Of a stretch of DNA of 18,505 bases, positions 2,895 through 18,505 are shown in pieces; within the stretch, counting starts at the first letter, position 1, and the number at the start of each line of letters is the position of its first letter. The DNA comes from a virus: the UHGV virus genome UHGV-0309262; one strand, 5' to 3'. The notes under the pieces were generated by a model. That model saw nothing but the letters and a program-made list of their open reading frames with translations. It did no database searches and was not told where the DNA came from. The translations under genes and the position numbers were made by a program.

Positions 2895-3146
2895 CTACTA
2901 ATAAGGAGATATAGAGCATTACTTTCCCGCTTTTGACCGACAAAAAATCGAGTTGTTAAGTATTGCCAGCCCAGGCCCAGTAAGGCTTAGCGAGGTGGTG
3001 ATTAAAAATTGACCTAATAAAAGTATCTACTAAGGAGAAAGAATAACTCCCGAAGTGAGACAAACTCTCCGATTTTGAAAGTGACTATTAAGGCAGATAA
3101 AGACACTGACACTGTTGCCGACATGAAAACCTCTATAAGGGCAGAG
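2895..3146. repeat. Array of 4 degenerate direct repeats (consensus about CTAnTAAGGnAG) upstream of the helicase gene; possible iterons or operator sites
   Basis: CTACTAATAAGGAG (2895..2908), TCTACTAAGGAG (3027..3038), GACTATTAAGGCAG (3083..3096) and CTCTATAAGGGCAGAG (3131..3146). None is followed by an ORF, so they are unlikely to be ribosome-binding sites. Confidence 0.4.
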
Positions 3147-3215
3147 AGTCTGCCGCACCTGTACCACCGCCCCAACCTGAGCTAATACCTACCCCTATTT
3201 TCTGGAGATTTCACC

Positions 3216-5060
3216 ATGCCAACAAACCTACGCCGCCTGCTTGCGCAGGCTGCTGACGCCGAACCGCTGAACACTGCGATTGCCGAAGCTCAGCAATTGG
3301 TTGCGGAGAAGATCGTTATACCTCATTCCAAGTTATGCCCTGTCAAACAGCGACCTGTGAAGGCTGCGTTTAACACGGAGTCCGGGCAGTATTTCTACAA
3401 TGCAGATGGTTCCGTTATGTCGTTCCGTGAATGGAAAGAGGCGAACGGAATCGGACGCAAGACACACGCCCGCCGCGCTGATGCTGGGCTACGTCAGATT
3501 ATCCAGCCCGGCGACGCAATTCATTGTCAACGCGCTGAGATTGATCAATGGCTCAACAAGAAGCCTGCCCGGTACGCCGAACCGCTGCCGCCAGATTTTC
3601 CCGGCGTTCGCGTTGACGATGCCGCTCTGAAACCACGTGAGCACGCCATCCCGGAAGCGACCACGGGGCAAAACGCCTTTCTTAAAGCCTGTCGCGAGTT
3701 TCTGATTTGTGATGAGAAGACCATCCGCCGCATCAATCGTGGCATGAGCAAGCTGGAGGCGATGCGCCACGCTGACTTTGACACCCTCGGGGATAGCCCG
3801 GAGTTTCACCAGCTATGGGGCAGTGAGCTGAAATCCACTAAGGACAATTTCAACACGAAGAACCAACACTGTGACGTTGGCGGCGCTGACCTGCCGCCGT
3901 CCATCCCGCCTCTGGTTACAGCGCCGTACAGGTTCCGTGAGCTGGAGCAATGCGACCGCCCGGCATTCGTACCGTTACCGCCGCCAGATGGTCATGACTG
4001 GCGACCCGGTCAACTCGACGTGGCCGCCGCTGTGTTTGCCCGTGACCGCGATATGTTGGCCGTACTGCCGACCGGGTACGGAAAGACGGCTGCATTCACC
4101 TATGCCCTGCATTTTGAGTCTGATGCTGGCGAAGGTATGACCGTTATTGTCGTGCCGACGAACACTATCAAGCAGCAGGTGCTAGAGCAGTTAAGGGAGG
4201 CTGGCGTTCACGCTGTGGCATTTGGCGATAAACTACCGAAGCGGCGTAATGCGCAGCAACTTGCGGGGTTGGCTGCTGGTGCTTTCCGCGTCGCAGTCGT
4301 TTCGCCTGAACATCTGGTGCCGGGTAGTCAGGTGCTTGCCGCGCTGATGGCCGCTGGTGCGGACAGATTTATCATTGACGAGGTGCACACCGTTGATGAA
4401 TGGGAGTTCCGGGACGCTTTCCCTGCAATGAAGCACACCCTGCAAAATGCCTTCCCGGATGCTCAGCGGTGCGCGTTTACTGCGACCCTGCGAAAAGGTG
4501 ATGAGTCTGGCTTGATGAAAGAGCTTGGCTGTCGTGGCGAGTTCCTCACCTACCGCGCCAGTGCTGCCCGTGAAAACATCCAGCTTATTCCTGCTCAGCA
4601 ATGCGTAACTCCGCGCCGGGCTGCCGTTGGTCTGGTCAATGCGCTGCCGGAGAATGAAAAGACATTGGTGATGGTGGACAGCATAAAGATGCTGTATGCG
4701 TATCTCAACGAACTGGGAGACCGTGCCCGGCCTTATCATTCTGACGTTGAGCGACTGAGCCGCGATCAGCGGCACGCCAACGCAGAGTGGTTCTCCAGCA
4801 CGCCCGGCGCTGTTCTGGTGGCGACCAAAGCCTTTGGCCTCGGAGCCGATATTTCTGACGTGCGTAACGTAATTGTCACTTATGTTCCGGAAGACCTGCC
4901 CGATTTGGTGCAAATGGTTGGCCGTGCCGGGCGCGATGGTCAACCTGCCCGTGCTTTCATACTCTGGTCATCGTTGGCGCTGGGGGATGCGCCTGATGAT
5001 TTGGCGGCGTTGTACCAGCCCCACAATGCTAACTGGGGTTACATCTCCCGCTTCCTCTGA
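3216..5060 (+). CDS. RecQ-like SF2 DNA helicase with an ~270 aa N-terminal domain of unknown function (614 aa); probable replication or recombination protein of the element
   Basis: Helicase motifs read from the translation: motif I LPTGYGKT, motif II IIDEVH, motif III FTAT, and motif V/VI VATKAFGLGADISDVRNVI...QMVGRAGRDG, which closely resembles the RecQ signature QExGRAGRDG. SD GGAGA 7 nt upstream of ATG 3216. Confidence 0.8.
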   Translation: MPTNLRRLLAQAADAEPLNTAIAEAQQLVAEKIVIPHSKLCPVKQRPVKAAFNTESGQYFYNADGSVMSFREWKEANGIGRKTHARRADAGLRQIIQPGDAIHCQRAEIDQWLNKKPARYAEPLPPDFPGVRVDDAALKPREHAIPEATTGQNAFLKACREFLICDEKTIRRINRGMSKLEAMRHADFDTLGDSPEFHQLWGSELKSTKDNFNTKNQHCDVGGADLPPSIPPLVTAPYRFRELEQCDRPAFVPLPPPDGHDWRPGQLDVAAAVFARDRDMLAVLPTGYGKTAAFTYALHFESDAGEGMTVIVVPTNTIKQQVLEQLREAGVHAVAFGDKLPKRRNAQQLAGLAAGAFRVAVVSPEHLVPGSQVLAALMAAGADRFIIDEVHTVDEWEFRDAFPAMKHTLQNAFPDAQRCAFTATLRKGDESGLMKELGCRGEFLTYRASAARENIQLIPAQQCVTPRRAAVGLVNALPENEKTLVMVDSIKMLYAYLNELGDRARPYHSDVERLSRDQRHANAEWFSSTPGAVLVATKAFGLGADISDVRNVIVTYVPEDLPDLVQMVGRAGRDGQPARAFILWSSLALGDAPDDLAALYQPHNANWGYISRFL

Positions 5061-5103
5061 GCTAACTGGCTCGCCTGTTTAATTTCCTCTCTGGAGAATC
5101 CAC

Positions 5104-5535
5104 ATGCCTGATGAAACCGTGCGGCAACGCGCGGGGCGTTCTGACGCCCTGATTAATGCGCAGCTCGCTTACGCCCTGAACGGGTATTCATTTGATGGGT
5201 TGGCCGAACGTCATCGCAAGACCCTTAACCGGGAGGCCATCCTTCGCGAGGTGTCCACGCCGCTGGAGCGATATTGCCTTTTGAATGATTGCGAACCGTG
5301 GGAGTGTCTGGCCGCTGTGCTGAACCGCATGAAAAGGCCGGATGGCTCACGTTGCTGGAAAGCTGTCCGCCTGTCTGAGCGGGTTTTTAATGGTCGAGTG
5401 CATCCAGTGCGCAAGACACCTGATGAAGTTTACGCCGCCATTGCCCGCCGTTTATTTCTGCCGAAGCCCGTGCATCAAGAAGTGATACAGCACATCCGGG
5501 CGCTTGGCCTGTTACCAGTTGGAGATAACCATTAA
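5104..5535 (+). CDS. Hypothetical protein (143 aa), first gene of a coupled operon
   Basis: ORF with SD GGAGAA 6 nt upstream of the ATG. Its stop overlaps the next start (TAATG). No recognisable motif. Confidence 0.55.
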   Translation: MPDETVRQRAGRSDALINAQLAYALNGYSFDGLAERHRKTLNREAILREVSTPLERYCLLNDCEPWECLAAVLNRMKRPDGSRCWKAVRLSERVFNGRVHPVRKTPDEVYAAIARRLFLPKPVHQEVIQHIRALGLLPVGDNH

Positions 5536-5744
5536 TGACCAAAACCGAGTTTGAAGCTGGGACATGGGATATGCGGTGCCTGTTGCTGGAGGCGCTGACC
5601 CGCCGCCTGAAAGAGGACTCCGCTGGAGAATCCCGCATGGCTGCTGCCGAGCTGTCATCCTGCGTGAACTTCCTCAAGCAAAATGCCGCCGATGCGCCGG
5701 ACGCATCTTTCAATAACGTGTTCCCGGAGGATGACAACGAATGA
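5535..5744 (+). CDS. Hypothetical protein (69 aa), acidic C-terminus
   Basis: Start overlaps the preceding stop (TAATG) and the stop overlaps the next start (ATGA), indicating translational coupling. Confidence 0.45.
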   Translation: MTKTEFEAGTWDMRCLLLEALTRRLKEDSAGESRMAAAELSSCVNFLKQNAADAPDASFNNVFPEDDNE

Positions 5745-5932
5745 CGCCGCACCAGTTTAGAGCGTGGTTTAACTCGCTGCCTGAGAAGTACCAGAAGCAG
5801 GCCAAAGCCATGTACGACAACGCCCGGCGCGGCGGTGGTATCCATACCGCATCCAGCCTCGCTTTGATTAAAGACCTTGTAGAAGATTCGATTAACTTTG
5901 ATGGAGAGTTCCAGTATGACAACCACCAGTAA
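5741..5932 (+). CDS. Hypothetical protein (63 aa)
   Basis: ATGA overlap with the upstream gene; in-operon position and consistent coding composition. Confidence 0.45.
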   Translation: MTPHQFRAWFNSLPEKYQKQAKAMYDNARRGGGIHTASSLALIKDLVEDSINFDGEFQYDNHQ

Positions 5933-6494
5933 CGCAACCCTGACCCTGCGCGATATTCAGCTTATCAATAAACTGAGTATTGTTGACCACCTGAACAACG
6001 ATGAAATCTCTTCTCGCACTGGTTTCAGCCCGAGCGACATCGACCGTGTAATCCGTGGCGTCTATGTCGATGACTTGGCCGAACAGTGGAAAGACGATGC
6101 TGATATTACTCTGGCTGAATACAACGCCATCCGCAGCCGCTATAAGCCCGGCAAGCTGCACCGTGATACGGAATTTATGATTGCCCGCGATACGCTGATT
6201 CGCCCTGAAACCGTGCTGGCTATCGCTCATTCCAGATTCCAGAACGCCCACACTCACCCTGCGCCGAAAGCCGTTAAAGTGAAGCCGGAGAAAGCGAAAG
6301 CCATGCGCAAGCTGGTGCCTTCTGATTTGGATGAAATCCACAAGTTAGAGCGCTTTGGCTGGCCTGTCGCTGACATCGCCCAAAAGCTGGACGTTCCGCC
6401 AGAGGTGATCGCTTTCGTTAACCGCTGCTTAAAGAGCCGCTGGCCGTATGGTGACATTCTGGAAAATGTTAATGCGAAATGGGGAGCCGAGTGA
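5916..6494 (+). CDS. Hypothetical protein (~192 aa)
   Basis: ATG at 5916 is preceded by GGAGAG at 5902..5907. The ORF track's earlier TTG start at 5898 lacks an SD. Stop overlaps the next start (TGATG). Confidence 0.5.
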   Translation: MTTTSNATLTLRDIQLINKLSIVDHLNNDEISSRTGFSPSDIDRVIRGVYVDDLAEQWKDDADITLAEYNAIRSRYKPGKLHRDTEFMIARDTLIRPETVLAIAHSRFQNAHTHPAPKAVKVKPEKAKAMRKLVPSDLDEIHKLERFGWPVADIAQKLDVPPEVIAFVNRCLKSRWPYGDILENVNAKWGAE

Positions 6495-6724
6495 TGGAAG
6501 ATAACGACATCATTCACCCTGCAATTGACCCGACTCAATACGTCAACCTTGACGAGATGCGGGAAGGCTACGCCCCTGTTAAGCCGCAGGGGTGGGACAT
6601 CCTGACGCAGAATCTCCGAAGTGAGGCCGCACCCGAACAGCCAGTCACCGCCCGTGGACGCCGCCAGCGTCCGCGTGGCTCCGCTGGCGAGCGCCGTTGG
6701 CTACGCCGTCACGGGCTTATTTAA
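6494..6724 (+). CDS. Hypothetical protein (76 aa), Arg-rich C-terminus
   Basis: ATG 6494 overlaps the upstream stop; GGGGAG SD at 6481..6486. Confidence 0.45.
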   Translation: MEDNDIIHPAIDPTQYVNLDEMREGYAPVKPQGWDILTQNLRSEAAPEQPVTARGRRQRPRGSAGERRWLRRHGLI

Positions 6725-6738
6725 CTGAGGATTATTTC

Positions 6739-6978
6739 ATGAGCACCATCATTTTAATGGAGCCACGCCGCGCGGCTGATTGCGGGCAACAACTGAAATT
6801 CATTGCTGACGCCTTGAATCTTCGTCAAATCGACTTGGCTCGTGTGTACCAGATCGACAGACAAGATCTCGGCAAAGCGTACCACGGACAGAAGATGATT
6901 CCTGCCCGATGCGTACATGCGCACATGCTTTTACTTGAACTGGCGCACCGCCGAGTTACATCACAAGAGGTTGCATAA
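6739..6978 (+). CDS. Hypothetical small protein (79 aa)
   Basis: ATG 6739 is preceded by GAGG at 6727..6730. The track ORF starting at 6697 overlaps the previous gene and is less likely. Confidence 0.4.
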   Translation: MSTIILMEPRRAADCGQQLKFIADALNLRQIDLARVYQIDRQDLGKAYHGQKMIPARCVHAHMLLLELAHRRVTSQEVA

Positions 6979-6980
6979 TT

Positions 6981-7676
6981 ATGGCTGACAATCAAAACCC
7001 TTATCTCGCTGCTGGCGCTGATGCTGCATCGCAGCAATCGCCATACATGGCTGCACCTGTTGGAGCTGACAATGGGGCATCCCGCTTTAGCTCTGCGCCT
7101 GCTGATGCTGATTTCCTCCGTACCCAACCCGTTAACGGTAATGATGGCGGCCAATGGAATAATAGCAATATTGCTAATCAGCAAGACCAGAACGCGGACA
7201 GCGCCGGGGCGCAGGTGGGCGATACTATTCCCCTGATGGATGGAACAGCTATTGAGTACACCGCCGAGCTGCAAGGATTGATGGGGCAGTTTCACCAGTC
7301 TATAGAAAGCCAGCTCGGGCACGGAACAGTTGACGCTATGTTGCAGTACGCGGGCACGCTTGACGCCGGGACGCAATCCACCCTTGAACGTATGGTTATG
7401 TCTGGCGACCCTGCGCAGATGCAGCGGGCTGTTCAGTACCTGCAAGAGAGGATGGCCGCAGGCACTGCGACTGGTTATGTCCCGTCGCAGGGGAACACAT
7501 ATGGTCAGCCCGCCGCGCAACCTGTCGGAATGTCACACGCTGAATTCATCGCGGCGTACGATGCGCTGAATCAATGGGCTGCACAGACTGGCCGGGGTGC
7601 TGGCACGCGAGAATACGACCAGCAGTATCATGCGCTGGTTGCTCAACGCAGCGCCGGGAAGCGTGCCGGGCGCTAA
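6981..7676 (+). CDS. Hypothetical protein with a low-complexity Ala/Gln/Gly/Asn-rich N-terminal half (231 aa)
   Basis: Long ORF with no internal stops, in-operon position. The composition suggests a disordered region; no enzymatic motif recognised. Confidence 0.5.
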   Translation: MADNQNPYLAAGADAASQQSPYMAAPVGADNGASRFSSAPADADFLRTQPVNGNDGGQWNNSNIANQQDQNADSAGAQVGDTIPLMDGTAIEYTAELQGLMGQFHQSIESQLGHGTVDAMLQYAGTLDAGTQSTLERMVMSGDPAQMQRAVQYLQERMAAGTATGYVPSQGNTYGQPAAQPVGMSHAEFIAAYDALNQWAAQTGRGAGTREYDQQYHALVAQRSAGKRAGR

Positions 7677-7690
7677 CTGGAGAATTCCAT

Positions 7691-7954
7691 ATGTACGATG
7701 AGAATAGAATCCGAGTCCTGACCGAGGTAGAGAAACAATCTCACTCGGTCGATAGCATTCTTTCCATTCTGCTTGATAAATACCCCAGCACCAGCCCCGA
7801 CCATCTGACGCGTGTCGCTGAATGCCTCGTTACTTTTGGCTGGGGTGTTGCTGAATACGATGCGTACCGCGCCGGGATGCTTGGCGAAGAGAAGCGCCAG
7901 ACGATGGTCGCTTGGTTTACTGAGCGGAATTCCGCGCAACGCTGGGCTGCCTGA
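7691..7954 (+). CDS. Hypothetical protein (87 aa)
   Basis: ATG 7691 with GGAG SD 8 nt upstream, just after the upstream stop at 7674..7676. The ORF track's 7574 start lies inside the preceding gene. Confidence 0.45.
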   Translation: MYDENRIRVLTEVEKQSHSVDSILSILLDKYPSTSPDHLTRVAECLVTFGWGVAEYDAYRAGMLGEEKRQTMVAWFTERNSAQRWAA

Positions 7955-8224
7955 TTCCGATGCCAGCGCCTGACGGTGCATTGTGGGCTGCAAGTCCGAC
8001 TGGACACCTGACCCTGCGAATTAACTACTTACTGTCCACTAATCGCTGAGAGCCGCGCCAATTCTGGCCTAGCAAAGCCAGTTTCGGGTACTCGGAGACT
8101 TTTCTATCAATCTGCTTTAACCCTGATTTTCCATCTCTCTGAATCCTGCCACGGCGGGAGGATTACGCACGCCTGCACCATGACGATGGCGCGGGCTTCA
8201 TCAACCTACGTAGGAGTTTTGTTT

Positions 8225-9220
8225 ATGGCTGATACTTCGTACAGTCCCGATCTGTTTCGCCCACATTATGGCGGGGTGGAATCCGACAATGATATTCACA
8301 TCGAGGCTTATGACCGGGATGTCCAGACCCGTTTAGAGTCCAAATCCGTATTTCTGGCCGAGGGGCTGTCTACATACAGGCCGCTGAAAGGCAGCAACCA
8401 ATACCGCATTGATCGCCTGAGTGGTGATCTTGAGGTGAAGGGCAGAACCGCAGGGCAATCGCTGGAGCCTACCGCCGTTAAGTCGGACAAGCTGATCATC
8501 TCTGTGGATACTCTGAGCTATATCCGCATCCCGATTGATTATCAAGATGACTGGACTGCACCCACCTTTCGCGCCGAGCTGAGCCGCAACATGGGGACAG
8601 CCCATGCGAAGTTTTACGACGAAGCGCACACCATCCAGTTAATCAAAGCGACTGACTTTGTACCGCCGCCGACACTGCAACCAACGTTTAACCCGCTTAC
8701 GGGCAATGTTGTCTCGCTCGACCTGACAGCGGGGAGCGAAGAGGACGCCGCAAAAGAGCTGGTTCACGCTATCAAAGCTGCTGTTGATCGGTTCCTGACT
8801 GAGAAAGATATTCCGGTGGTGGAGTTGTGTCTTCTCATCGACCCGGCTTGGTTCAGCATCCTGATGGAACACAAGAAGCTGATGAACGTCCGTTATAGCC
8901 GGGATAGTGGCAACGATTACGCGTGGCGGCGCATCGGTTACGTGGCCGGGGTGCGAGTCATTGAGCTGAACAGTTACCCGCAGGAAGCCATTACCGGGCA
9001 TGAGCTGGGCGCTGATTATGACGTTACCGCAGAGGAAGCGCTGACGAGGGCGACGCTGTTTAAACCCTCCTCGGTACTGTTGACGGTCGAAGCACAGAGC
9101 GTCATCAATCGCCAGTGGGATGATGAACGCGAAATGACGGTGGTGATGGACTCATATCGCCTGTTCAACGTTGGGCTGCGTCGTCCTGATTGCGTTATCA
9201 ATTTCCGACAATCTGCGTAA
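8225..9220 (+). CDS. Hypothetical protein (331 aa); possibly structural, but this is a weak guess
   Basis: ATG 8225 preceded by AGGAG at 8210..8214, following a 270-bp intergenic gap. Size and position after a low-complexity protein loosely resemble a scaffold/capsid arrangement, but no motif confirms it. Confidence 0.5.
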   Translation: MADTSYSPDLFRPHYGGVESDNDIHIEAYDRDVQTRLESKSVFLAEGLSTYRPLKGSNQYRIDRLSGDLEVKGRTAGQSLEPTAVKSDKLIISVDTLSYIRIPIDYQDDWTAPTFRAELSRNMGTAHAKFYDEAHTIQLIKATDFVPPPTLQPTFNPLTGNVVSLDLTAGSEEDAAKELVHAIKAAVDRFLTEKDIPVVELCLLIDPAWFSILMEHKKLMNVRYSRDSGNDYAWRRIGYVAGVRVIELNSYPQEAITGHELGADYDVTAEEALTRATLFKPSSVLLTVEAQSVINRQWDDEREMTVVMDSYRLFNVGLRRPDCVINFRQSA

Positions 9221-9236
9221 CTGGAGGGGCTGGGTC

Positions 9237-9746
9237 ATGGTTAATGATACTTACGCCCCTGAGCTGTTGCGATCCCTTTTCCTGTACGACCCGGTGACAG
9301 GTCGCCTGCACCATAAAGCTAACCGACGCCGGGTTAAGGCTGGCTCCTGTGCTGACTCCACCCGTCGAGCTGATGGCTATCGTCAAGTTGCCCTGCGACT
9401 GGATGGCAAGCAGTACCAGCTAAAAGCCCACCGCGTGGCGTGGATTCTTGCGCATGGCGCTATTCCTGATGGTCTGCAAGTTGACCACATCAACGGTATC
9501 CGTGACGACAACCGCCTATGCAATCTGCGCTTGGTTACGCAGCGGGAAAACGACCAGAACCGACGCAGGGCAAAGGGTTGTAGCTGGAATAAGGGCTGTA
9601 GCAAATGGGAGGCTTACATTCGCGTTAATGGTGTACGCCATCACCTTGGCTTATTCACTAGCGAAGCGGCGGCGCGTGCTGCTTACCTGAAAGCAAAAGC
9701 CAGATACCATCCCTCGACCCCAGTCGATTTGTTAAATGCTGCTTAA
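9237..9746 (+). CDS. HNH endonuclease with AP2-like DNA-binding domain (169 aa)
   Basis: AHRVAWILAHGAIPDGLQVDHINGIRDDNRLCNLRLVTQRENDQNR matches the phage-type HNH_3 signature (H...DH.NG...DNR..NL......N). WEAYIRVNGVRHHLGLFTSEAAARAAY matches an AP2 domain. SD GGAGGGG 6 nt upstream. Confidence 0.7.
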   Translation: MVNDTYAPELLRSLFLYDPVTGRLHHKANRRRVKAGSCADSTRRADGYRQVALRLDGKQYQLKAHRVAWILAHGAIPDGLQVDHINGIRDDNRLCNLRLVTQRENDQNRRRAKGCSWNKGCSKWEAYIRVNGVRHHLGLFTSEAAARAAYLKAKARYHPSTPVDLLNAA

Positions 9747-9764
9747 ACTTTGGAGACGTAGTTT

Positions 9765-10199
9765 ATGGGGACTAAAAAGCAGGGTAGAGCAATCCGAGTG
9801 CTGCCAGATGATGACCCACGTCGCCAGCGGTACGCCGAACTGTTGGCGCAGGCTGGCCGGATGACTGTCCCCCGGTTGCATCCGGGAGACGCTAACAGCG
9901 TAATGAGCCAGCTCGCGACGATGCTTGGCGCACCAGTCCCGATAGTCGGCACTATGACGGAGCACGCCGCCGCATGGCGGACCTGCCTGCTGGAGCAAGG
10001 ACTTGGCGATCTGCTGGCTGGCTTGAGTAAGCAGGTACTGACCGTCTTCTTTCTGCTTTGCTGGAGAGACAGCGCCTTGCGGCAGGTTGGCAAGGAGCGG
10101 GAACGGCTTACGGCGGCCAGCGAAGGCTTGACCATTGAACAGTATCGGGCAATGCGCTCGGCTTACAGAGAGAATAAAGAAGATGATGACCACGATTAA
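9765..10199 (+). CDS. Hypothetical protein (144 aa)
   Basis: ORF with GGAGACG SD upstream of ATG 9765; in-operon position. Confidence 0.45.
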   Translation: MGTKKQGRAIRVLPDDDPRRQRYAELLAQAGRMTVPRLHPGDANSVMSQLATMLGAPVPIVGTMTEHAAAWRTCLLEQGLGDLLAGLSKQVLTVFFLLCWRDSALRQVGKERERLTAASEGLTIEQYRAMRSAYRENKEDDDHD

Positions 10200-10482
10200 A
10201 TTAAGGTGGCGGTACATCGATCCGCCGCCAATGGCTGGCGCACTCGCTGACCTGAAAGTGTGGGTAATGGATACCGGAGAGCCTGAGCTGGAAGCTGAAT
10301 TTCGTAAGCTGCTGGGGTTAATGCGCCGCAACGGTATCAGTGACGAACGCGTTAATGCGATGGCTGATGAGCTTTATGTTCTGGTACGGCAACGGCAGCG
10401 CGAAGAATACGAAGCCTGCAAGCGGGCTGCATCTGACAATGGAGACTTTGAATCATGGTTACACGGACAGACCAGCTACTAA
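10183..10482 (+). CDS. Hypothetical protein (~99 aa)
   Basis: ATG 10183 overlaps the end of the upstream gene. The 5' part of the track ORF (from 10135) overlaps that gene and is rejected. Confidence 0.4.
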   Translation: MMTTIKLRWRYIDPPPMAGALADLKVWVMDTGEPELEAEFRKLLGLMRRNGISDERVNAMADELYVLVRQRQREEYEACKRAASDNGDFESWLHGQTSY

Positions 10483-10883
10483 GAAAAGCTATGCGGGGCT
10501 ATCTGGAACACCTCGGCAACATGCCGTTGGCGGAACGGATTACAAACACTGCTGCATTCGAAGATGTGTATCGCTTCCTGTTGAATGGTTCCGGGCGTCT
10601 GGAGCTGCGTCGTGCTGATGTGGCCGCTGTCCGTTTCTTCTTGTGGAATTATCAATACCGCCGCTGTGCGGTGACAGGTAAGCCGCTGCGCCTTACGTCT
10701 GCCGTATTAGATCACTGCCACCGAACCGGGCGCGTGCGTGCTGTGGTGCATCGCTCTGCTAACGCTGCTGAGGGTGGCTACCATGCTGGGCGTTTGTGTG
10801 GGCTGTCGCCTAGCAGCATGAACGCGATGCTGGCGAGCTACCGCCAACAAAACCAAGGGCTGGGCGTTGTTTATCCGGGGTGA
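10455..10883 (+). CDS. Endonuclease VII-like (Holliday-junction/branched-DNA nuclease family) protein (142 aa)
   Basis: C-terminal CAVTGKPL...LDHCHRTGRVRAVVHRSANAAEG matches the Endonuclease_7 pattern (C..C...DH.H.TG.VR.....N...G). GGAGA SD upstream of ATG 10455. Confidence 0.6.
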   Translation: MVTRTDQLLRKAMRGYLEHLGNMPLAERITNTAAFEDVYRFLLNGSGRLELRRADVAAVRFFLWNYQYRRCAVTGKPLRLTSAVLDHCHRTGRVRAVVHRSANAAEGGYHAGRLCGLSPSSMNAMLASYRQQNQGLGVVYPG

Positions 10884-10895
10884 TGAGTTCTCGCT

Positions 10896-10917
10896 GCGCC
10901 GGGTTTGCACCCGGCAC
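10896..10917. terminator. Putative bidirectional hairpin between convergent transcription units
   Basis: GCCGGGT-TTGC-ACCCGGC stem-loop in the 55-bp gap between the plus-strand operon (ends 10883) and the minus-strand R gene (ends 10939). Weak U-tract. Confidence 0.3.
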
Positions 10918-10938
10918 AAAAGATGTTTAGCCCACTAG

Positions 10939-12015
10939 TCAGTGGGTTACGCAGTTTTCCATAAACGCATTAAGGAATTGATCTGTAATTCCTTGTGGTT
11001 TGCGTCGTTCACAAAGAGAATACAATTCTTCGACTGCTGAGTACGGGAAGAATTTTGTGTCCAGCTCTCGGAATTGCGGCATATTCGCAAACTCAATGAC
11101 TTTAGCACGATATTCATCGGGGGCTACGATTGTCCATCTGATATCTTGAAGCCGTGGGGCATAGTCACAAAAATTCTTCATCCGGGTTAACCCGCTTTTA
11201 ATCCCAGTGCTGTGCTCAATTTCCATCACGGCGGGCATTAATTTTCCATTTCTAAACCAAATGCAATCTATTAGTTTTGCACCGTCAATGGCCTCGCTGT
11301 ACGAGCTTAATACCTTTTCATTTGAGAGGCTATCAATTACCCCATCCATTTGAGCAATGACTTTTCCGTTATATTTAAGTCCGCGATCATTAGCTGCCAC
11401 CCATGTTCTGTAGCCTAAGTGGTGGCCGATTTTTACTAATGCAATCTGGATTTGTGCATGTCTTCTTGATTCTTCAATCGACATGCCCTCAACTGGGCGG
11501 ATCGTTTCCAGATCAACGCTTTGATATACAACCTCTGTTTTCATCTCTGATATTACAATATTAGCTTTGTATTCAGAGAGCTTACCGTTTTCGTGTGGCG
11601 AATTGGGTAAGTACACAAGATGCTTGTGGCCTTTCTTTACCGTCTGTTTAGTGTTAATAACTTCTAAACGGTCGAGTTTACACCAATAAAATTGCGGTGT
11701 GTGTGCAAGTAAACTCTCAATAACGGAACGGGAGTTATAGCTTGCACCAAGCACTCTATCTAAATTGATAGGTGCATCCTCTTGAATTGCATTAGCCAAA
11801 CGCCAAAGCATCTGGCTAGAGATGCTGTCTATTTTTGCATCTTTAAGCGTCTCGCCTTTGGTCGGATTAAAACGCTTAAAGCGTATCGGGCCTTGTGGTG
11901 ACTTAATCGAGTCGACGACAATCTTCCCAGCATTACTTTCATTCACATAATCAAACTGCCTGTTTTTGGGCAGGTTGGCTATCGCATTCACAAGATTCAT
12001 TGCTGTCAAATTCAT
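10939..12015 (-). CDS. Putative type II restriction endonuclease (358 aa), cognate to the adjacent methyltransferase
   Basis: Immediately downstream of, and overlapping by 65 nt, a C5-cytosine methyltransferase gene on the same strand. Similar low GC. AGGGA SD upstream of ATG 12015. The function is inferred from position only; no catalytic motif recognised. Confidence 0.5.
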   Translation of the reverse strand: MNLTAMNLVNAIANLPKNRQFDYVNESNAGKIVVDSIKSPQGPIRFKRFNPTKGETLKDAKIDSISSQMLWRLANAIQEDAPINLDRVLGASYNSRSVIESLLAHTPQFYWCKLDRLEVINTKQTVKKGHKHLVYLPNSPHENGKLSEYKANIVISEMKTEVVYQSVDLETIRPVEGMSIEESRRHAQIQIALVKIGHHLGYRTWVAANDRGLKYNGKVIAQMDGVIDSLSNEKVLSSYSEAIDGAKLIDCIWFRNGKLMPAVMEIEHSTGIKSGLTRMKNFCDYAPRLQDIRWTIVAPDEYRAKVIEFANMPQFRELDTKFFPYSAVEELYSLCERRKPQGITDQFLNAFMENCVTH

Positions 12016-13090
12016 CTTTTATCCCTAAATGCTCTAATATAGATTTTGCTATTCCGAAGGCTGCAAGGTAAGGAACACCATTACCAACAGTTTTGAACAT
12101 ATTTGAAAGAGTCATATAAGATGGCAATTCAAACTCTTTCGGCAAAGACTGAATGGCAAGCGCTTCTGCAACTGTTATTCTGCGTGGCTTATATGGATGT
12201 AAATGAACCTCGTTATTACCATAAGCAGCAGTCGGCGAATATCTCCAGCGGTGGAGGCGCTTGTAAGATTTTTTACTATCGTCACCTTCTGCAACAGCCT
12301 TGAAGCGTACTAATCCAGCTCTGGCCGTAAATACATGCTTCGCGTTCACATGTTCAGAAACATTATTTTTCTTAAACCAGTAATCAACAGTTAATTCTTG
12401 TGGGAGTGACTCTGGCATTGCAAGTGTAGAGTCCTCGGAAAATTCATTTGTTGTTGGCCAACTGTAACTAAAGGCATTACGATCCGGGTATAATCTGCCA
12501 CTCCAATTAAATGACTTGGCTAGTCTCTTACTTTGGAAACCCAATAGAATAATGCGCTCTCGGTCTTGCGGAGCACCGTATTCAATCGAATTAATCAACC
12601 TTTCATGAAGAGTGTAACCCACATCCATCAACTGCTCTTTGAGATGCTCAAAAAACTCGCGATGCTTGAGTGTGCGATATAACCCCTTGACGTTCTCGAA
12701 CAAGAAGAAGTCAGGTTTCATCTCTACAATTATATCAATGTAGCTTTGGGACAGCTTACCATTCTCCCCATCGCGCCCTTTGTTTTTGCCCGCAACGGAG
12801 AAGTCGGGGCAAGGTGGGCCACCAATGAAGCCAATCAGTCTTTTTTCTTTCTTGAGTGTTTTAATAGCGTCTTTCAACTGCTTGTGATCAACTTCCTCTA
12901 TGCTCTTTTCGGCATAGCCAAAACGAGGGATAGGCTTGTTCATTACCGCACGCGAGTGCTTGTAAGCATCCATAAACGGCGGGTGAAATTCATTCACAAA
13001 AACCACTTCGTAGCCTGAGTTTTCAAAGCCAAGGTCTAAAAAGCCTGAGCCGGAAAAGAAAGAGAAGATGGCGGGTTTAAGTGTGGACAT
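11951..13090 (-). CDS. DNA (cytosine-5)-methyltransferase (379 aa)
   Basis: C5-MTase motifs in the expected order: motif I FSGSGF (F-x-G-x-G), motif IV GGPPCP (the catalytic Pro-Cys), motif VI ENV (FLFENVKGL), motif VIII QDRER, motif X GNGVP near the C-terminus. Confidence 0.8.
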   Translation of the reverse strand: MSTLKPAIFSFFSGSGFLDLGFENSGYEVVFVNEFHPPFMDAYKHSRAVMNKPIPRFGYAEKSIEEVDHKQLKDAIKTLKKEKRLIGFIGGPPCPDFSVAGKNKGRDGENGKLSQSYIDIIVEMKPDFFLFENVKGLYRTLKHREFFEHLKEQLMDVGYTLHERLINSIEYGAPQDRERIILLGFQSKRLAKSFNWSGRLYPDRNAFSYSWPTTNEFSEDSTLAMPESLPQELTVDYWFKKNNVSEHVNAKHVFTARAGLVRFKAVAEGDDSKKSYKRLHRWRYSPTAAYGNNEVHLHPYKPRRITVAEALAIQSLPKEFELPSYMTLSNMFKTVGNGVPYLAAFGIAKSILEHLGIKDEFDSNESCECDSQPAQKQAV

Positions 13091-13225
13091 TTTTTACCTA
13101 TTGCTGATCATTAAGACATGCGAAAACGCCCCTGCATCTTAACAGATGAGGGGGTCATTGCAACGGATTGCGGGGAGCTGTAGCGATGAGCTGGCTCAGA
13201 TGAACGATTCAAACATCCATTAAAT

Positions 13226-14434
13226 TTAAAGGGCTATTTGATGGTTCACAAACTCCACGTAGCGTGATAGTTCGGCTGGGGCTGCTGCGTTTTTCGAATA
13301 TGTTTTGAAGCTCTCCGTGTTACCTCGCTCATGGCCGACGAGCAGGGCAATGCGATCCTCTGGCACTTGAGCACGGTCGAGCTGTTGCACAAACGCATGG
13401 CGGAGTGAATGAAACACTTTTCTCTCTGCGGCAGGCTCGCCAAGAGCTTTACGCTTTGCTCGCGTGAATTGTTGCGTATGCCACGTTGAGCGCTTCCCAT
13501 CGGCCCGGTCTGTAATAGATGCGTGATAGAACAGAAAACCGCTATGTGTGGTTTTGAGCAATGATTTCATGAGGGGGATTAACTTGCTGTGTACAGGGAC
13601 AATTCGCGCTGCGCTCTTAGTTTTCCCCTCGGTGATCTCAAAGCACAATATCCCCTCGATAGTTTTAATGCTGCTTTCACGTAGCGTACATATCTCATTG
13701 ATCCGCATACCGCTGTATGCACCAATAGCCGTTACCGCCTTCATCTCATCATCAAGCAAAGCATAGACCTTTGCCAGCTCACCCGGTGCGAAGACTTCAT
13801 AGCTGACCTTGCTGCTTTTTGCTTCGAGCGCATGACCGCGCCAAGGATTGTCTTGTGGCGCATCGTGATAGCGATTGCGTGCCAGATCCCATATCTGCGC
13901 CAGTGCGCTTATATAGTTTTGAATAGTTTGGGGCGCTCGCTCAGTTTTGAGCTTATCTAACCAGCCTGTAACTATGGTTCGGTTAATATCCCGCAACTGA
14001 ACATCTTTCTTTTTCAGGTGGGTTAACAGCACCTCTACGGCTTTGTTGGTCTTAGATAGCGTTGTTAGCTTTCTCTTCTCGCTGTATTGGAGAAGATACA
14101 GATCGCGCATTTTAAGTAGGGAGGGGCAAGCCTGAACCGATGCACCAAATGATGCGGGGGCTTCCTTGGCATATACACTGACACGGCGTAGCTCATCAAT
14201 GATTTGATCGACGGATGAGCCGCCTTGCGGTTTTAGCAGATTCCGTAAGCGAGTCCATTCCAGAGCAATAGCATCGCGAAACAAACGCGCTTGCCGTATG
14301 TCGCGTGTCCCTGTGCTTTTCATAAAGTAGCGCTTCCCTTGGAACAGGTGACGCATATAGCTGGGGATAGCTATCCGCACGAGGTAATTACCGCAGGGAT
14401 CTAAAACTAGATAACGATCTCTCTTGAAACTCAT
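13226..14434 (-). CDS. Tyrosine recombinase / phage-type integrase of the inserted element (402 aa)
   Basis: C-terminal catalytic signature: R in YSGMRINEI, HSLRHAF (H-x-x-R box), LLVGH, and the nucleophile Y in TESFKTYSKN. Lies next to the right direct repeat. Confidence 0.8.
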   Translation of the reverse strand: MSFKRDRYLVLDPCGNYLVRIAIPSYMRHLFQGKRYFMKSTGTRDIRQARLFRDAIALEWTRLRNLLKPQGGSSVDQIIDELRRVSVYAKEAPASFGASVQACPSLLKMRDLYLLQYSEKRKLTTLSKTNKAVEVLLTHLKKKDVQLRDINRTIVTGWLDKLKTERAPQTIQNYISALAQIWDLARNRYHDAPQDNPWRGHALEAKSSKVSYEVFAPGELAKVYALLDDEMKAVTAIGAYSGMRINEICTLRESSIKTIEGILCFEITEGKTKSAARIVPVHSKLIPLMKSLLKTTHSGFLFYHASITDRADGKRSTWHTQQFTRAKRKALGEPAAERKVFHSLRHAFVQQLDRAQVPEDRIALLVGHERGNTESFKTYSKNAAAPAELSRYVEFVNHQIAL

Positions 14435-14567
14435 ACAAACCCCGGTTATGTTGTCGGGGCTTTTTCATGGCTAAACAGTCTGTGAAATGTGCCGGGGTTA
14501 TGAGCTTTAGTCTCGCTGGTTCAATGATTTAACAATGATTCTTGAAGCAAGCTAAGCCGCCTAAACC

Positions 14568-14598
14568 CGTGCCGGTTCGAGTCCGGCCTTCGGCACCA
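14568..14598. repeat. attR core: displaced original 3' end of leuX
   Basis: Identical 31-bp copy of tRNA positions 110..140, located ~165 bp upstream of the P4-like integrase where an intact leuX would normally sit. Confidence 0.8.
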
Positions 14599-14710: not shown

Positions 14711-14764
14711 TTGGGGGCATAATTGGGGGCATCTTAACTTCGATTAGAAATGTGCCCCCAAATG
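14711..14764. promoter_or_regulatory. Direct and inverted repeats of a TTGGGGGC motif upstream of and overlapping the intB start; putative integrase operator or arm-type site
   Basis: TTGGGGGCAT (14711..14720) and TTGGGGGCAT (14723..14732) are direct repeats. Their reverse complement GCCCCCAA sits at 14753..14760, overlapping the start codon. Confidence 0.3.
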
Positions 14765-16027
14765 AAGCTCAACGCCAGACAGGTCGAGACCGCAAAGCCA
14801 AAAGACAAAACCTATAAAATGGCCGATGGCGGCGGTTTGTATCTCGAGGTTTCGGCCAAGGGTTCTAAATACTGGCGCATGAAATACAGACGCCCCTCAG
14901 ACAAAAAAGAGGATCGCCTCGCTTTTGGTGTTTGGCCTACTGTGACGCTTGCTCAGGCAAGAGCAAAGCGCGACGAAGCTAAAAAGCTGTTAGTGCAGGG
15001 CATTGACCCAAAAGCCGAACTGAAAGAAGCTCAGGCCGAGAATTCGGGGGCATATACTTTCGAAACCATTGGCCGTGAATGGCATGCCAGTAACAAGCGC
15101 TGGAGTGAAGACCATCGATCACGCGTTCTTCGCTATCTTGAGCTTTATATCTTCCCTCATATCGGTTCGTCCGACATTCGCCAGCTCAAAACTAGCCACC
15201 TGTTAGCCCCGATTAAAAAAGTTGATGCCAGTGGAAAGCATGACGTCGCTCAGCGCTTGCAACAGCGCGTTACGGCCATTATGCGTTATGCCGTACAGAA
15301 CGATTACATCGACTCAAATCCAGCCAGTGATATGGCCGGTGCGCTATCGACAACCAAAGCGCGGCACTATCCTGCTTTGCCCTCTAGCCGCTTCCCAGAG
15401 TTTCTTGCTCGTCTTGCTGCATATCGTGGCCGTGTAATGACACGGATCGCGGTCGAGCTTTCCTTACTCACTTTTGTACGTTCCAGTGAGTTACGTTTCG
15501 CGCGTTGGGATGAATTCGACTTCGATAAATCTCTTTGGCGTATACCGGCAAAACGAGAAGAAATTAAAGGCGTGCGTTACTCGTATCGTGGCATGAAAAT
15601 GAAAGAGGAGCATATTGTTCCTCTCAGTCGGCAGGCGATGGTTTTATTAGAGCAGCTCAAGCAAATTAGTGGTGATAAAGAGCTGCTGTTCCCGGGAGAT
15701 CATGACGCAACTAAGGTTATGAGTGAAAACACGGTAAACAGTGCATTGCGTGCAATGGGATATGACACGAAAACTGAGGTCTGTGGGCATGGGTTCAGAA
15801 CGATGGCGCGTGGTGCTATGGGTGAGTCAGGGTTGTGGAGTGATGACGCGATAGAGCGACAGCTGAGCCATTCAGAACGTAATAACGTGCGTGCAGCTTA
15901 TATTCATACTTCTGAGCATTTGGATGAGCGACGTTTAATGATTCAGTGGTGGGCTGATTATCTTGATGAGTTAAATAATAATTACATTACTCCATTTGAT
16001 TTCGCTAAAATACAAAAAAATTATTAA
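14762..16027 (+). CDS. intB: P4-family tyrosine integrase (421 aa)
   Basis: N-terminus MKLNARQVETAKPKDKTYKMADGGGLYLEV is the hallmark P4-like integrase arm-binding signature (AKPK..Y...DGGGLYL). Typical position just downstream of the leuX 3' end. The in-frame ATG at 14750 is an alternative start. Confidence 0.85.
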   Translation: MKLNARQVETAKPKDKTYKMADGGGLYLEVSAKGSKYWRMKYRRPSDKKEDRLAFGVWPTVTLAQARAKRDEAKKLLVQGIDPKAELKEAQAENSGAYTFETIGREWHASNKRWSEDHRSRVLRYLELYIFPHIGSSDIRQLKTSHLLAPIKKVDASGKHDVAQRLQQRVTAIMRYAVQNDYIDSNPASDMAGALSTTKARHYPALPSSRFPEFLARLAAYRGRVMTRIAVELSLLTFVRSSELRFARWDEFDFDKSLWRIPAKREEIKGVRYSYRGMKMKEEHIVPLSRQAMVLLEQLKQISGDKELLFPGDHDATKVMSENTVNSALRAMGYDTKTEVCGHGFRTMARGAMGESGLWSDDAIERQLSHSERNNVRAAYIHTSEHLDERRLMIQWWADYLDELNNNYITPFDFAKIQKNY

Positions 16028-16038
16028 TATTTACATGG

Positions 16039-16062
16039 AAGGGCTGAAAGAACAGCCCTTCT
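16039..16062. terminator. Bidirectional rho-independent-type terminator between intB and the convergent AT-rich locus
   Basis: Perfect 9-bp stem GAAGGGCTG / CAGCCCTTC with loop AAAGAA, flanked by T-rich sequence on both strands. Confidence 0.5.
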
Positions 16063-16070
16063 AATATATT

Positions 16071-16327
16071 TAATTATTTTTCAGTAATCCTTTATCTTCT
16101 AATTCTGTATAGATAGCTAGCGGTAATTTTAAGGAATCATAATCATTATTCCTTAACCATTCCTTCGCCGCACTTACCGAAGGGTTTGAGTTTGGAATGA
16201 TATTCTCTAGATACGATGCTGTAATTCTAGATAACCCTAGTTCGATGAATACTTGCCCTGCGATAGATGAAACCCCTAGTTCAAGTGATAATGGAAAATC
16301 ATAGATTTCTTCAGATTTTTTTCTTGG
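16071..16327 (-). other. Start-less 84-codon open frame overlapping the helicase 3' end; possible frameshifted C-terminal extension or gene remnant
   Basis: My translation of the minus strand gives ...KSEEIYDFPLSLELGVSSIAGQVFIELGLSRITASYLENIIPNSNPSVSAAKEWLRNNDYDSLKLPLAIYTELEDKGLLKNN* with no ATG, GTG or TTG. It is in the -1 frame relative to the helicase and begins at an A7 tract (plus-strand T7 at 16306..16312). Confidence 0.3.
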
Positions 16328-18345
16328 TTATTTTCAATTAAAGCTTGGCGCAATAAGTCAATATATGCCTTGCCAAGTTGCACATATTTGAATCGCAAGT
16401 TATCTTCCACGAAATCAAAAACCTCTCTTACAGCTCTGTCCACATTTACAGGCCTAGTGGAGTTTTTTTCTTTTTTCTTATTTATGGAGAGAGAGATTAT
16501 CTCCGGCAGAGATTTACCCCTCATCCAATTCAAAGCCATTGAAGTTAGATAGTTAGAAAATTTAGATGTATTATGGTTAAGGATGTATTTATTTATTCTG
16601 CTAAAAACACCAACGTAATTTTTGTAAACATCACCTGAAGGATGGCGAGGTATAAGTTCGTCAACTTTACCTTCCTTTATTTTCTGGATAAATCTATTGT
16701 ACAATCGTTCCTGTCCAAATGGATCAACTGTCCAGTTCAGAGTTAAAACCTCATGAGGTATTTTAAGTGATTCTAATGAGATATAAGTGGCATTTTCAAT
16801 AGTTTCAAGTTTTGATTTGTCAGATATAGTTCGAAATAATCTTTTAAGAAAATTATGCAAATCTCCTTTTGCGGCTCTGGAGATTAAAAGGCCTGCCGCT
16901 GCATCAATATTACTATATGGCGTCACTCCTGAATGATTATTTTTGTCTAATCGTGATATTACTGTGTCAAAATCTTCATTAATTACTTTCTTAAAAGATG
17001 AAGTAATTTTGAAGTCTATTTTGGAATCTAAAGGCTTGGTTACCCAATCATCATAGTCAATAAGATAAACATTTCCCGAAAATGCATAACCTAATCTACC
17101 TGCCCGCCCTGCGAAATTCCATAGCGATGCTGGATCTAATTTTTCTCCCCTGTTTCCTCGTGTAGGTGTATCAATAAAAACATTCTTTGCAGGCAGATTA
17201 ACCCCTTGAAAAAGGGTTGTTGTGCAAACTAAAAACTTCAGTTTATTATTCGTGAAATTTTTTTCTAATGTTTCTCTTAATAAGCTTGGCATTTTACCAT
17301 AATGGTATCCAACCCCTCTCAATACGAGGTTTGCAAGAGAGTAATCCTTGTGGACATGTTTTTTTATAAATTTTGAGAGCTCTTGTAATTCACTGTCATC
17401 CTCTAAAAGAGGTAATCCAGAAGATATTTGCTTAGCTACATCTTCTGCATTGGCAGCTCCGGTTCCGTAAACTAAAGACCCCTCATTTTTTCCTAATTCT
17501 AATGCGACAGCCGCCAATCTTGTATTTTCATTGGCGAAACCCCTTGTCGATTCTATTTCTCCGATCGGTAATATGTTTGAATTGTCTAATAATGATAATT
17601 GTAAGTTGTTTTCTTTTGATGGATCAACTTTGACGATAATTTTGTTTTGAACTACAGGAGATAGATTTGTTTTTTCAATATGGATTGCATCGATTCCAAT
17701 AATATCTGCTAAATCATCAAAACCTTCAGCACCAGGCGCGAGGAAAACATATTTTGCATTAGGGTTTTGTGTGCTAATTTTATCAAGGCAGTCCTGTAAT
17801 ATCATCCCCCTAATTTCGTCAGAAATTGATTGTGCTTCGTCAATAACTACCAAGTCTATTTTTTCTTCAAAATTATCAAGCAATACTTGAAGTCTTTCCT
17901 GTGTTAAAACAAATATCTGCTTATTATATTCGTTATTAATTGTTGGTATGGATGTTACTCTGACTTCATTTTGATATGGTAAAGTCTTGATTATAAATTT
18001 TTGTGTTATTTCATTTACTAAAGCACGGGTTGGTGCTATATAAATGGCGGAATTTAATTCGCCGCTAATTATTCTGTTGGCGAGCATTTCCACAACTAAG
18101 AACGATTTTCCGGCTGATGTTGGAGCTGATATAGCTTGAGGGACATTCGAGTGCAATGACTCCCATACTCTTTTCTGAAAGTTTGTTAATGTTATTTCTT
18201 TGTTGGAGATCTTTATTTTATTTTCATTTTCTATGAAAGATCTTTTTAAGAAGGCATAAAAACTTTCTGGTATAAATCCATTTTCTTGTTGAAGATAAGT
18301 TGCTCCAGGGAAGTTGCCCAAAACTCTTAAAAGATTTTCTGACAT
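16276..18345 (-). CDS. Ski2/Hel308-like superfamily 2 DExx-box helicase (~689 aa) in very AT-rich DNA; candidate anti-phage defence gene
   Basis: Motif I APTSAGKS, motif II VVIDEAQ, motif VI FAGRAGRLG, and a Ski2/Hel308-like block GVGYHYGKMPSLLRETLEKNF...LKFLVCTTTLFQGVNLPAKNV. Start taken as ATG 18345 (MSENLL...). The ORF track's TTG start at 18381 lies inside the IS1 inverted repeat and is rejected. Confidence 0.7.
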   Translation of the reverse strand: MSENLLRVLGNFPGATYLQQENGFIPESFYAFLKRSFIENENKIKISNKEITLTNFQKRVWESLHSNVPQAISAPTSAGKSFLVVEMLANRIISGELNSAIYIAPTRALVNEITQKFIIKTLPYQNEVRVTSIPTINNEYNKQIFVLTQERLQVLLDNFEEKIDLVVIDEAQSISDEIRGMILQDCLDKISTQNPNAKYVFLAPGAEGFDDLADIIGIDAIHIEKTNLSPVVQNKIIVKVDPSKENNLQLSLLDNSNILPIGEIESTRGFANENTRLAAVALELGKNEGSLVYGTGAANAEDVAKQISSGLPLLEDDSELQELSKFIKKHVHKDYSLANLVLRGVGYHYGKMPSLLRETLEKNFTNNKLKFLVCTTTLFQGVNLPAKNVFIDTPTRGNRGEKLDPASLWNFAGRAGRLGYAFSGNVYLIDYDDWVTKPLDSKIDFKITSSFKKVINEDFDTVISRLDKNNHSGVTPYSNIDAAAGLLISRAAKGDLHNFLKRLFRTISDKSKLETIENATYISLESLKIPHEVLTLNWTVDPFGQERLYNRFIQKIKEGKVDELIPRHPSGDVYKNYVGVFSRINKYILNHNTSKFSNYLTSMALNWMRGKSLPEIISLSINKKKEKNSTRPVNVDRAVREVFDFVEDNLRFKYVQLGKAYIDLLRQALIENNQEKNLKKSMIFHYHLN

Positions 18346-18367
18346 TTGTTTCAAATAATCATCACCG

Positions 18368-18505
18368 GGTGATGCTGCCAACTTACTGATTTAGTGTATG
18401 ATGGTGTTTTTGAGGTGCTCCAGTGGCTTCTGTTTCTATCAGCTGTCCCTCCTGTTCAGCTACTGACGGGGTGGTGCGTAACGGCAAAAGCACCGCCGGA
18501 CATCA
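18368..18505 (+). mobile_element. IS1 insertion sequence, left end (IRL plus 5' region), truncated by the window edge
   Basis: GGTGATGCTGCCAACTTACTGATTTAGTGTATGATGGTGTTTTTGAGGTGCTCCAGTGGCTTCTGTTTCTATCAGCTGTCCC... matches the IS1 left terminus and insA leader as recalled from memory. Composition jumps abruptly from ~30% GC to ~50% GC at 18367/18368. Confidence 0.8.
18423..18505 (+). CDS. insA: IS1 InsA, N-terminal fragment (continues beyond the window)
   Basis: GTG start followed by a translation [27 protein letters not shown], the zinc-finger-containing N-terminus of InsA. Confidence 0.7.

Follow-up and report, generated by a model that had tools for sequence, protein, structure and literature searches.

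The viral genome UHGV-0309262, analysed here as a single stretch of 18,505 nucleotides (the window), carries two overlapping genes of low GC content next to a gene for an integrase. The first encodes a C5-cytosine DNA methyltransferase (M) and the second a protein of 358 residues (R). This arrangement raises the question of whether the pair constitutes a working restriction-modification (R-M) system and, if so, of what kind it is and what it may do for the element in which it resides. From the sequence, the genomic distribution of the pair and a structural model of R, the locus is very probably a functional two-gene Type II R-M cassette of the NmeDI family. The coordinates of all features are collected in Table 1.

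Table 1. Features of the integrative element, its cargo slot and the M-R pair (positions in the window; evidence or remark in the last column)
Feature	Position	Strand	Evidence or remark
attL, 3' part of tRNA-Leu(CAA) (tRNA 56-140)	84-140	+	ARAGORN; direct repeat
Serine recombinase	1223-1906		element gene
DEAD-box helicase	3216-5060		element gene
Lone major head protein	8180-9220		phrog_267, 1.9e-70
HNH endonuclease	9171-9746		element gene
EndoVII-like protein	10455-10883		element gene
Variable cargo slot, EndoVII-like gene to integrase	10884-13225		comparison of related elements
R gene, NmeDI-family Type II restriction endonuclease, 358 aa, ATG start	10939-12015	-	PADLOC REase_II
Mobile M-R cassette	10952-13174	-	similarity limits vs RM10042 and Citrobacter sp. 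NCU1
R C-terminal PD-(D/E)XK nuclease domain, residues ~180-340	10996-11478	-	predicted structure
Putative catalytic motif of R, Asp250 ... Glu265-Ile-Glu267(-His268)	11215-11268	-	invariant in 38 diverse homologues
R N-terminal domain, residues 1-135, putative DNA-recognition domain	11611-12015	-	
M gene, C5-cytosine DNA methyltransferase, 379 aa, ATG start	11951-13090	-	PF00145; PADLOC MTase_II
Overlap of M 3' end and R 5' end, 65 nt, different frames	11951-12015	-	ORF list
Shine-Dalgarno-like AGGGA, 6 nt 5' of R start, within M coding sequence	12022-12026	-	read from sequence; function inferred
M motif IV, catalytic Pro93-Cys94-Pro95 (PCP, not PCQ)	12806-12814	-	read from sequence
Tyrosine integrase	13226-14434	-	PF00589, 1.1e-16; DUF6538
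attR, duplicated tRNA-Leu 3' end, closes the element	14542-14598	+	direct repeat

A preliminary description of this DNA had proposed an R-M module with overlapping genes of low GC content beside an integrase, and its account of the layout is borne out in each respect. Both open reading frames are found on the minus strand, where they overlap, and the integrase gene is located directly upstream on the same strand. M (0.429) and R (0.422) have a lower GC content than the core of the element (0.558) and the adjoining integrase gene (0.495). The Shine-Dalgarno-like sequence that precedes R, in the form AGG(G/A)A, is kept together with the ATG of R and the position of the M stop codon in five diverged copies of the pair, down to a DNA identity of ~70%. 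This conservation supports the ATG at 12015 as the start of R and suggests that translation of R is coupled to that of M. A search upstream of M on the minus strand, near 13091-13225, revealed no promoter, the matches being at chance level. A hairpin within the M/R overlap (11973-11956) was considered as an attenuator of R and rejected; the stem is not kept in other copies, and terminator-like matches are no more common than in shuffled sequence.

The surroundings of the pair define the kind of element in which it resides. The two att repeats (57 nt, 81% identity, no differences in the final 31 nt) delimit an integrative element of 14.5 kb at tRNA-Leu (leuX). Podophages of ~42 kb with related capsids are candidate helper phages for this island. 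The same element with the same cassette is found at 93-96% DNA identity in Escherichia (E.) coli 22AR0118, in Trabulsiella odontotermitis and in an Enterobacter metagenome-assembled genome (MAG), and related elements are found in 59 E. coli genomes; no named satellite family matching the element was found in a search of the literature. In sister elements the similarity to the window is lost at ~10801-10876 and found again from 13278 onwards, i.e., around a slot that harbors a YafO-family toxin gene in E. coli LR-33 and a gene for a hypothetical protein of 300 residues in E2348/69. The cassette itself is also found in unrelated contexts. Relative to the copies in E. coli RM10042 and Citrobacter sp. 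NCU1, the similarity ends at 10952 or 10956 on one side and at 13174 on the other, and these limits define a mobile unit of ~2.2 kb, in which M is preceded by 84 bp. The cassette is present without the element in E. coli RM10042 and VCSW7, beside the remnant of an insertion sequence at leuX, while E. coli IAI1 harbors, next to a different integrase at leuX, a variant with 70% identity, and a plasmid of Enterobacter cloacae carries a copy with 89% protein identity. A comparison of the cassette with phage genomes gave no DNA match. The M-R pair is a low-GC, foreign and swappable cargo located beside the integrase of a capsid-encoding, satellite-like island.

Such a mobile unit could be maintained for more than one reason. 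Type II R-M systems are known to cause post-segregational killing, and the cassette might be mainly a selfish addiction module, for which this killing is the selected property and anti-phage defence a by-product. The presence of a YafO-family toxin gene in the same slot of a sister element is consistent with this explanation, as is the transfer of a well-defined 2.2-kb unit among unrelated contexts, each within a leuX island. However, a near-full-length match to the cassette is found in 43 of 5426 complete E. coli genomes, i.e., the pair does not propagate itself strongly in this species, and the sequence cannot separate killing from defence, two roles that can coexist. We regard addiction as the main function of the cassette as possible but doubtful.

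The preliminary description had taken R for the cognate restriction endonuclease (REase) on the basis of gene order, and several lines of evidence now support this assignment. R matches the PADLOC REase_II profile PDLC03534 (8.5e-123) from position 5 to 350 of 351, collinearly over the full length. A search of 5.8 billion proteins yielded 1779 homologues of R; among the matches listed, the precomputed domain PF27126 is present on all of them, and their names include "restriction endonuclease", "type II restriction enzyme" and "Putative type II restriction enzyme NmeDIP". An E. coli copy of R with 86.6% DNA identity (WP_001308314.1) is named "type II restriction enzyme NmeDI-related protein" in RefSeq. 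The family that R matches is thus one of nucleases, and a PD-(D/E)XK domain is also seen in the structural model discussed below. There was no match of R to the library copies of Pfam and NCBIfam, of which the Pfam copy is older than PF27126, or to the sequences in the PDB, and no member of this REase family has a solved structure. By its profile match and the curated names, R is a member of the NmeDI-type REase family; this membership rests on the profile and the names rather than on pairwise identity to R.NmeDI (AJ238948). Relatives of the family found in a scan of genomes, described below, are 51-62% identical to R of the window.

An AlphaFold2 model of R, based on 38 diverse homologues (mean pLDDT 82.6, pTM 0.58), predicts two domains joined by a linker of low confidence at residues ~136-179. 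In the model, the elements of the C-terminal domain follow the order alpha-beta-beta-beta-alpha-beta. The best fold matches of this domain are the cleavage domains of N.BspD6I, the small subunit of R.BspD6I and FokI. A Foldseek search of the PDB gave no significant match. Asp250 is found at the start of a predicted strand (251-255), and Glu265-x-Glu267 on the next strand (263-266). Judging from their invariance and their placement in the model, Asp250, Glu265 and Glu267 would form a D...ExE variant of the catalytic motif, i.e., a non-canonical motif in which the third putative catalytic position is Glu and not Lys. When used alone as a query (tblastn), the C-terminal domain matches plasmid genes in many cases (28-36% identity), and about half of the matches listed are annotated as type II restriction endonucleases. 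This similarity suggests that the domain is a shared cleavage module. The combination of a putative recognition domain with a Type IIS-like cleavage domain, as predicted by the model, fits an NmeDI-like mode of cutting at a distance.

The prototype of the family also offers a candidate for the target sequence, for which the preliminary description had given no specificity. R.NmeDI is a characterised enzyme of 351 residues from Neisseria (N.) meningitidis that recognises RCCGGY (Kwiatek and Piekarowicz 2007, PMC2095814). It needs two sites, is active as a tetramer and cleaves the two strands on either side of its target (12/7) such that 25 bp are excised; NmeDI was suggested to resemble the Type IIS enzymes while recognising a palindrome (PMC2095814), a suggestion that the predicted architecture of R also fits. 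By analogy, RCCGGY would also be the probable target of the pair in the window.

The distribution of this sequence in the element is unusual. Within the element (141-14541) none of the 63 CCGG sites is an RCCGGY site, whereas RCCGGY accounts for 19-30% of the CCGG sites in the flanking E. coli chromosome. For the entire att-bounded element, simulation gave an expected number of 16.3 +/- 4.1 RCCGGY sites against one observed, which is located in attR. The non-palindromic forms ACCGGC and GCCGGT are together the most depleted of 32 comparable classes (0 observed, 8.3 expected). The depletion extends to other sequences, with 105 hexamer palindromes in the element compared with 225 expected and 26 of the 64 absent, and a single CCWGG where 27 are expected. 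Sister elements that lack the cassette are also depleted in RCCGGY (0 of 40 and 1 of 49 CCGG sites), and the avoidance was rejected as proof of the specificity of the cassette. From the general avoidance of palindromes and the depletion in these sister elements it becomes clear that the avoidance belongs to the element family as a whole; an RCCGGY-specific system would fit it but is not demonstrated by it.

These data bear on a second explanation, in which the cassette is a conventional Type IIP system, i.e., an R homodimer cuts within its palindrome, or the target differs from RCCGGY, such that neither the cleavage geometry nor the specificity of NmeDI is transferable. The identity within the family is 51-62%, a distance at which the specificity of an REase can change, and the avoidance of RCCGGY is not specific to the elements that carry the cassette. 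Furthermore, the methylase of an NmeDI relative is predicted to recognise RCCGGB (PMC2095814). On the other hand, R is predicted to have a two-domain architecture with a long, low-confidence linker (residues 136-179), the best fold matches are of the Type IIS type and suit cleavage at a distance, and R is collinear with the 351-position profile along its entire length. This explanation is unlikely, and an NmeDI-like R remains the preferred interpretation.

Whether the two genes form a functional unit can be addressed by comparing their occurrence across genomes. A scan of one genome per species, covering 185,579 species, revealed 218 stretches with relatives of R; the comparison was continued with the best 80 of them. 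In 78 of these best 80 of 218 loci a homologue of M is found immediately upstream of R on the same strand; the remaining two start at the end of a contig, within or just before R, such that M is next to R in 78 of the 78 informative loci among the best 80 of 218. The linked loci are distributed over Proteobacteria, Bacteroidota, Bacillota, Cyanobacteria, Verrucomicrobia, Elusimicrobia, Actinomycetota, Chloroflexi and candidate phyla. The stop codon of M overlaps or abuts the projected start of R in 72 of the 78 loci, with overlaps ranging from the 4-nt ATGA type to 122 nt. Each of the 43 E. coli genomes with a near-full-length match carries M together with R. Relative to the copy in E. coli RM10042, the dN/dS ratio is 0.036 for M and 0.030 for R (dS 0.77-1.15, overlap excluded), and no internal stop codon is found in any of the copies compared. 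The linkage, the low dN/dS ratios and the lack of internal stops indicate that both genes are intact and under strong purifying selection.

The same data address the scenario of an orphan regulatory methyltransferase located beside an unrelated or decayed gene. An orphan C5-methyltransferase specific for RCCGGY does exist, namely VchM of Vibrio cholerae (PMC4654547), and the lack of a match of R in the Pfam and NCBIfam library copies would be consistent with a VchM-like case. However, R accompanies M in every informative locus and in every matching E. coli genome, is intact with a dN/dS ratio of 0.03, matches an REase profile and has a predicted nuclease fold. The methylase is not an orphan in the related genomes, and a merely regulatory role beside an unrelated gene is very unlikely.

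The methylase is the more readily identified of the two partners. M matches Pfam PF00145 (5.1e-53) practically end to end (profile positions 3-323 of 324), TIGR00675 (7.9e-48) and the PADLOC MTase_II profile PDLC03355 (5.6e-164), and a sequence search also identified the structures of the HaeIII and HhaI methylases. The translation contains the motifs I (FSGSG), IV (GGPPCPDFS), VI (ENV), VIII (QDRER), IX (RRITVAEALAIQSLP) and X (GNGVP), in agreement with the preliminary statement that all key motifs are present. That description had also pointed out, as a minor oddity, that the catalytic Pro-Cys is followed by Pro instead of the usual Gln. The substitution is real in M; it is not a peculiarity of this copy, as PCPDFS is found in 119 of the 120 closest homologues of M. 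In the sequences compared, Pro after the catalytic Cys is a clade-wide trait of methylases paired with the NmeDI-type REase family, and no lesion. M also matches the PADLOC profile for DruM2 (PDLC00030, 1.3e-139), but the possibility that it acts as DruM in a Druantia type II system can be set aside as practically negligible, since the MTase_II profile scores higher, genes of the size of DruE, DruF or DruG and a large helicase-like partner are absent in and near the cassette, which holds only two genes within its limits, and the DruM match in the absence of other Druantia genes reflects methylase similarity only.

Taken together, these observations suggest the following model for the function of the cassette. 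M would transfer methyl groups from S-adenosylmethionine to form 5-methylcytosine at a short palindrome, by analogy most likely RCCGGY (or RCCGGB), in the DNA of both the host and the element. R, with its predicted N-terminal DNA-binding domain, flexible linker and C-terminal Type IIS-like PD-(D/E)XK cleavage domain, would bind sites that are unmethylated, probably as a tetramer that bridges two sites. If it acts like the prototype, R would then cut outside of the site, on both sides (12/7), with release of a fragment of ~25 bp. No separate controller protein is encoded. R would instead be translated from a start located 65 nt inside the 3' end of M, using its own conserved ribosome-binding site, and because the start of R is found inside M, synthesis of R is tied to transcription of M and probably also to its translation. 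The preliminary description had attributed both defence and stabilisation to the pair; in terms of this model, the cassette should restrict incoming unmodified phage and plasmid DNA, and it may also penalise loss of the island.

In a wider and less probable interpretation, the locus would have one of two additional meanings. The pair would be one swappable weapon in the integrase-adjacent slot of an undescribed family of capsid-encoding, satellite-like elements whose genomes have lost RCCGGY, CCWGG and roughly half of their hexamer palindromes, or it would represent an enterobacterial branch in which the specificity or the cleavage geometry is not that of NmeDI; we consider this proposal improbable. 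If the former were true, the lack of internal RCCGGY sites would make an RCCGGY-specific, double-cutting nuclease safe for the DNA of the element itself, even before methylation, and the nuclease could act on helper phages, on competitor phages and on hosts from which the element is lost.

Returning to the preferred interpretation of an NmeDI-family cassette, its consequences are of a practical kind. Many copies of R in RefSeq are still annotated as "hypothetical protein" and can be re-annotated as restriction endonucleases of the NmeDI family that are paired with a cognate C5-methylase. Strains that carry the cassette are expected to methylate cytosines and to restrict incoming DNA, which bears on the genetic manipulation of these Enterobacteriaceae. 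If the first C of RCCGGY is the one methylated, an RmC target for McrBC would arise. The locus also adds a further example of an R-M cassette in the variable slot of a leuX island, in a position that harbors a toxin gene in a sister element.

Phage satellites, for example P4-like ones, and integrative islands have hotspots for defence or addiction cargo. The element in the window resembles them in that a slot beside the integrase is occupied by an R-M pair here, by a YafO toxin gene in LR-33 and by another gene in E2348/69. The host element, which encodes a lone major head protein, a DEAD-box helicase, an EndoVII-like protein and an HNH endonuclease, could be assigned to no named satellite family.

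At the level of the nuclease, R resembles the Type IIS enzymes (N.BspD6I, the small subunit of R.BspD6I and FokI) in the predicted fold of its C-terminal domain. Cfr10I and Bse634I, which belong to the Cfr10I/Bse634I/NgoMIV family of CCGG-recognising enzymes, share the sequence RCCGGY with NmeDI; the members of this family differ in that they cut within the site. Homology of R to the CCGG-family REases with solved structures, such as Cfr10I and NgoMIV, was not found in the search of PDB sequences, and NmeDI is likewise reported to lack homology to Cfr10I or BsrFI (PMC2095814).

The closest parallel is NmeDI itself. [quoted passage not shown] The window shows the same arrangement, i.e., a gene for a C5-methylase followed on the same strand by a gene for an REase of ~350 residues that starts within the methylase 3' end, and the REase profile matched by R equals R.NmeDI in length (351 positions). 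The differences concern the details and the genomic setting. The overlap is 65 nt in the window compared with nine codons in NmeDI, and the Neisseria locus includes a Vsr repair endonuclease (PMC7973814), whereas the cassette of the window holds no such open reading frame. Furthermore, NmeDI is located between pheS and pheT on the Neisseria chromosome, while the pair in the window is the cargo of an integrative island. By its profile match and the curated names, the pair belongs to an already characterised kind of system, that of the NmeDI type.

The integrative element at tRNA-Leu(CAA)/leuX carries genes for a serine recombinase and a tyrosine integrase, together with those for a lone major head protein, an EndoVII-like protein, an HNH endonuclease and a DEAD-box helicase; the helicase matches the PADLOC DpdF profile PDLC02858 (E=0). 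The element looks like a phage satellite; no match to a named satellite family was found for it. Of 5426 E. coli genomes, 59 have a relative of the element, EPEC E2348/69 among them. Lytic phages of Escherichia and Enterobacter with genomes of ~42 kb (glasur, forsur, Lidtsur, usur and others) have capsid proteins that share 54−57% identity with the major head protein, and these phages are possible helpers of the element.

Coordinates of the features discussed (window positions, except for the two sister-element loci)
Feature	Position	Remarks
Integrative element	141-14598	14.5 kb, at tRNA-Leu(CAA)/leuX
Major head protein	8180-9220	
R C-terminal nuclease domain	10996-11478	residues about 181-330
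RCCGGY site, GCCGGT	113	tRNA-Leu gene
RCCGGY site, GCCGGT	14571	attR, duplicated tRNA-Leu 3' end
Second island	14750-18381	directly right of attR; GC ~0.33
P4-like integrase	14750-16027	PRK09692, 4.5e-80
Hachiman HamB-type helicase	16276-18381	PADLOC HamB1, E=0
YafO-family toxin gene	L083 12012-12485	E. coli LR-33, slot equivalent to R-M position
Uncharacterised 300-aa gene, WP_000013890.1	L084 11712-12614	E2348/69, slot equivalent to R-M position

Because the second island adjoins attR of the element, the two islands form a tandem array at leuX. HamA, the partner of the HamB-type helicase, would be expected past the end of the window.

The slot filled by the restriction-modification (R-M) genes in the window has other occupants in the sister elements: a YafO-family toxin gene in LR-33 and the gene of WP_000013890.1 in E2348/69, of which the latter may be further defence or addiction cargo.

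Short palindromes are strongly avoided across the element (window 141-14541), where 105 hexamer palindromes were observed vs 225 expected and 26 of the 64 possible ones are absent. Over the same interval CCWGG occurs once (~27 expected) and GGCC 43 times (vs 68), while RCCGGY, the likely target of R, is not found at all. The avoidance of RCCGGY and CCWGG is seen equally in sister elements that do not carry the R-M genes. RCCGGY is associated with the element at just two sites, both GCCGGT, one in the tRNA-Leu gene and one in attR, and both fall where the element cannot alter the sequence.

Among the E. coli RefSeq copies of the R gene (H1-H88), most are annotated as "hypothetical protein", and the name "NmeDI-related protein" is found on only two records, VCSW5 and VCSW7. 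The C-terminal nuclease domain of R by itself has relatives (28−36% identity) on many plasmids of Sphingomonadaceae, Ralstonia, Deinococcus and Burkholderia, and, among the matches listed, about half of these relatives carry the annotation of a type II restriction endonuclease. Such relatives of the nuclease domain alone suggest that the domain is one cleavage module common to enzymes with differing recognition domains.
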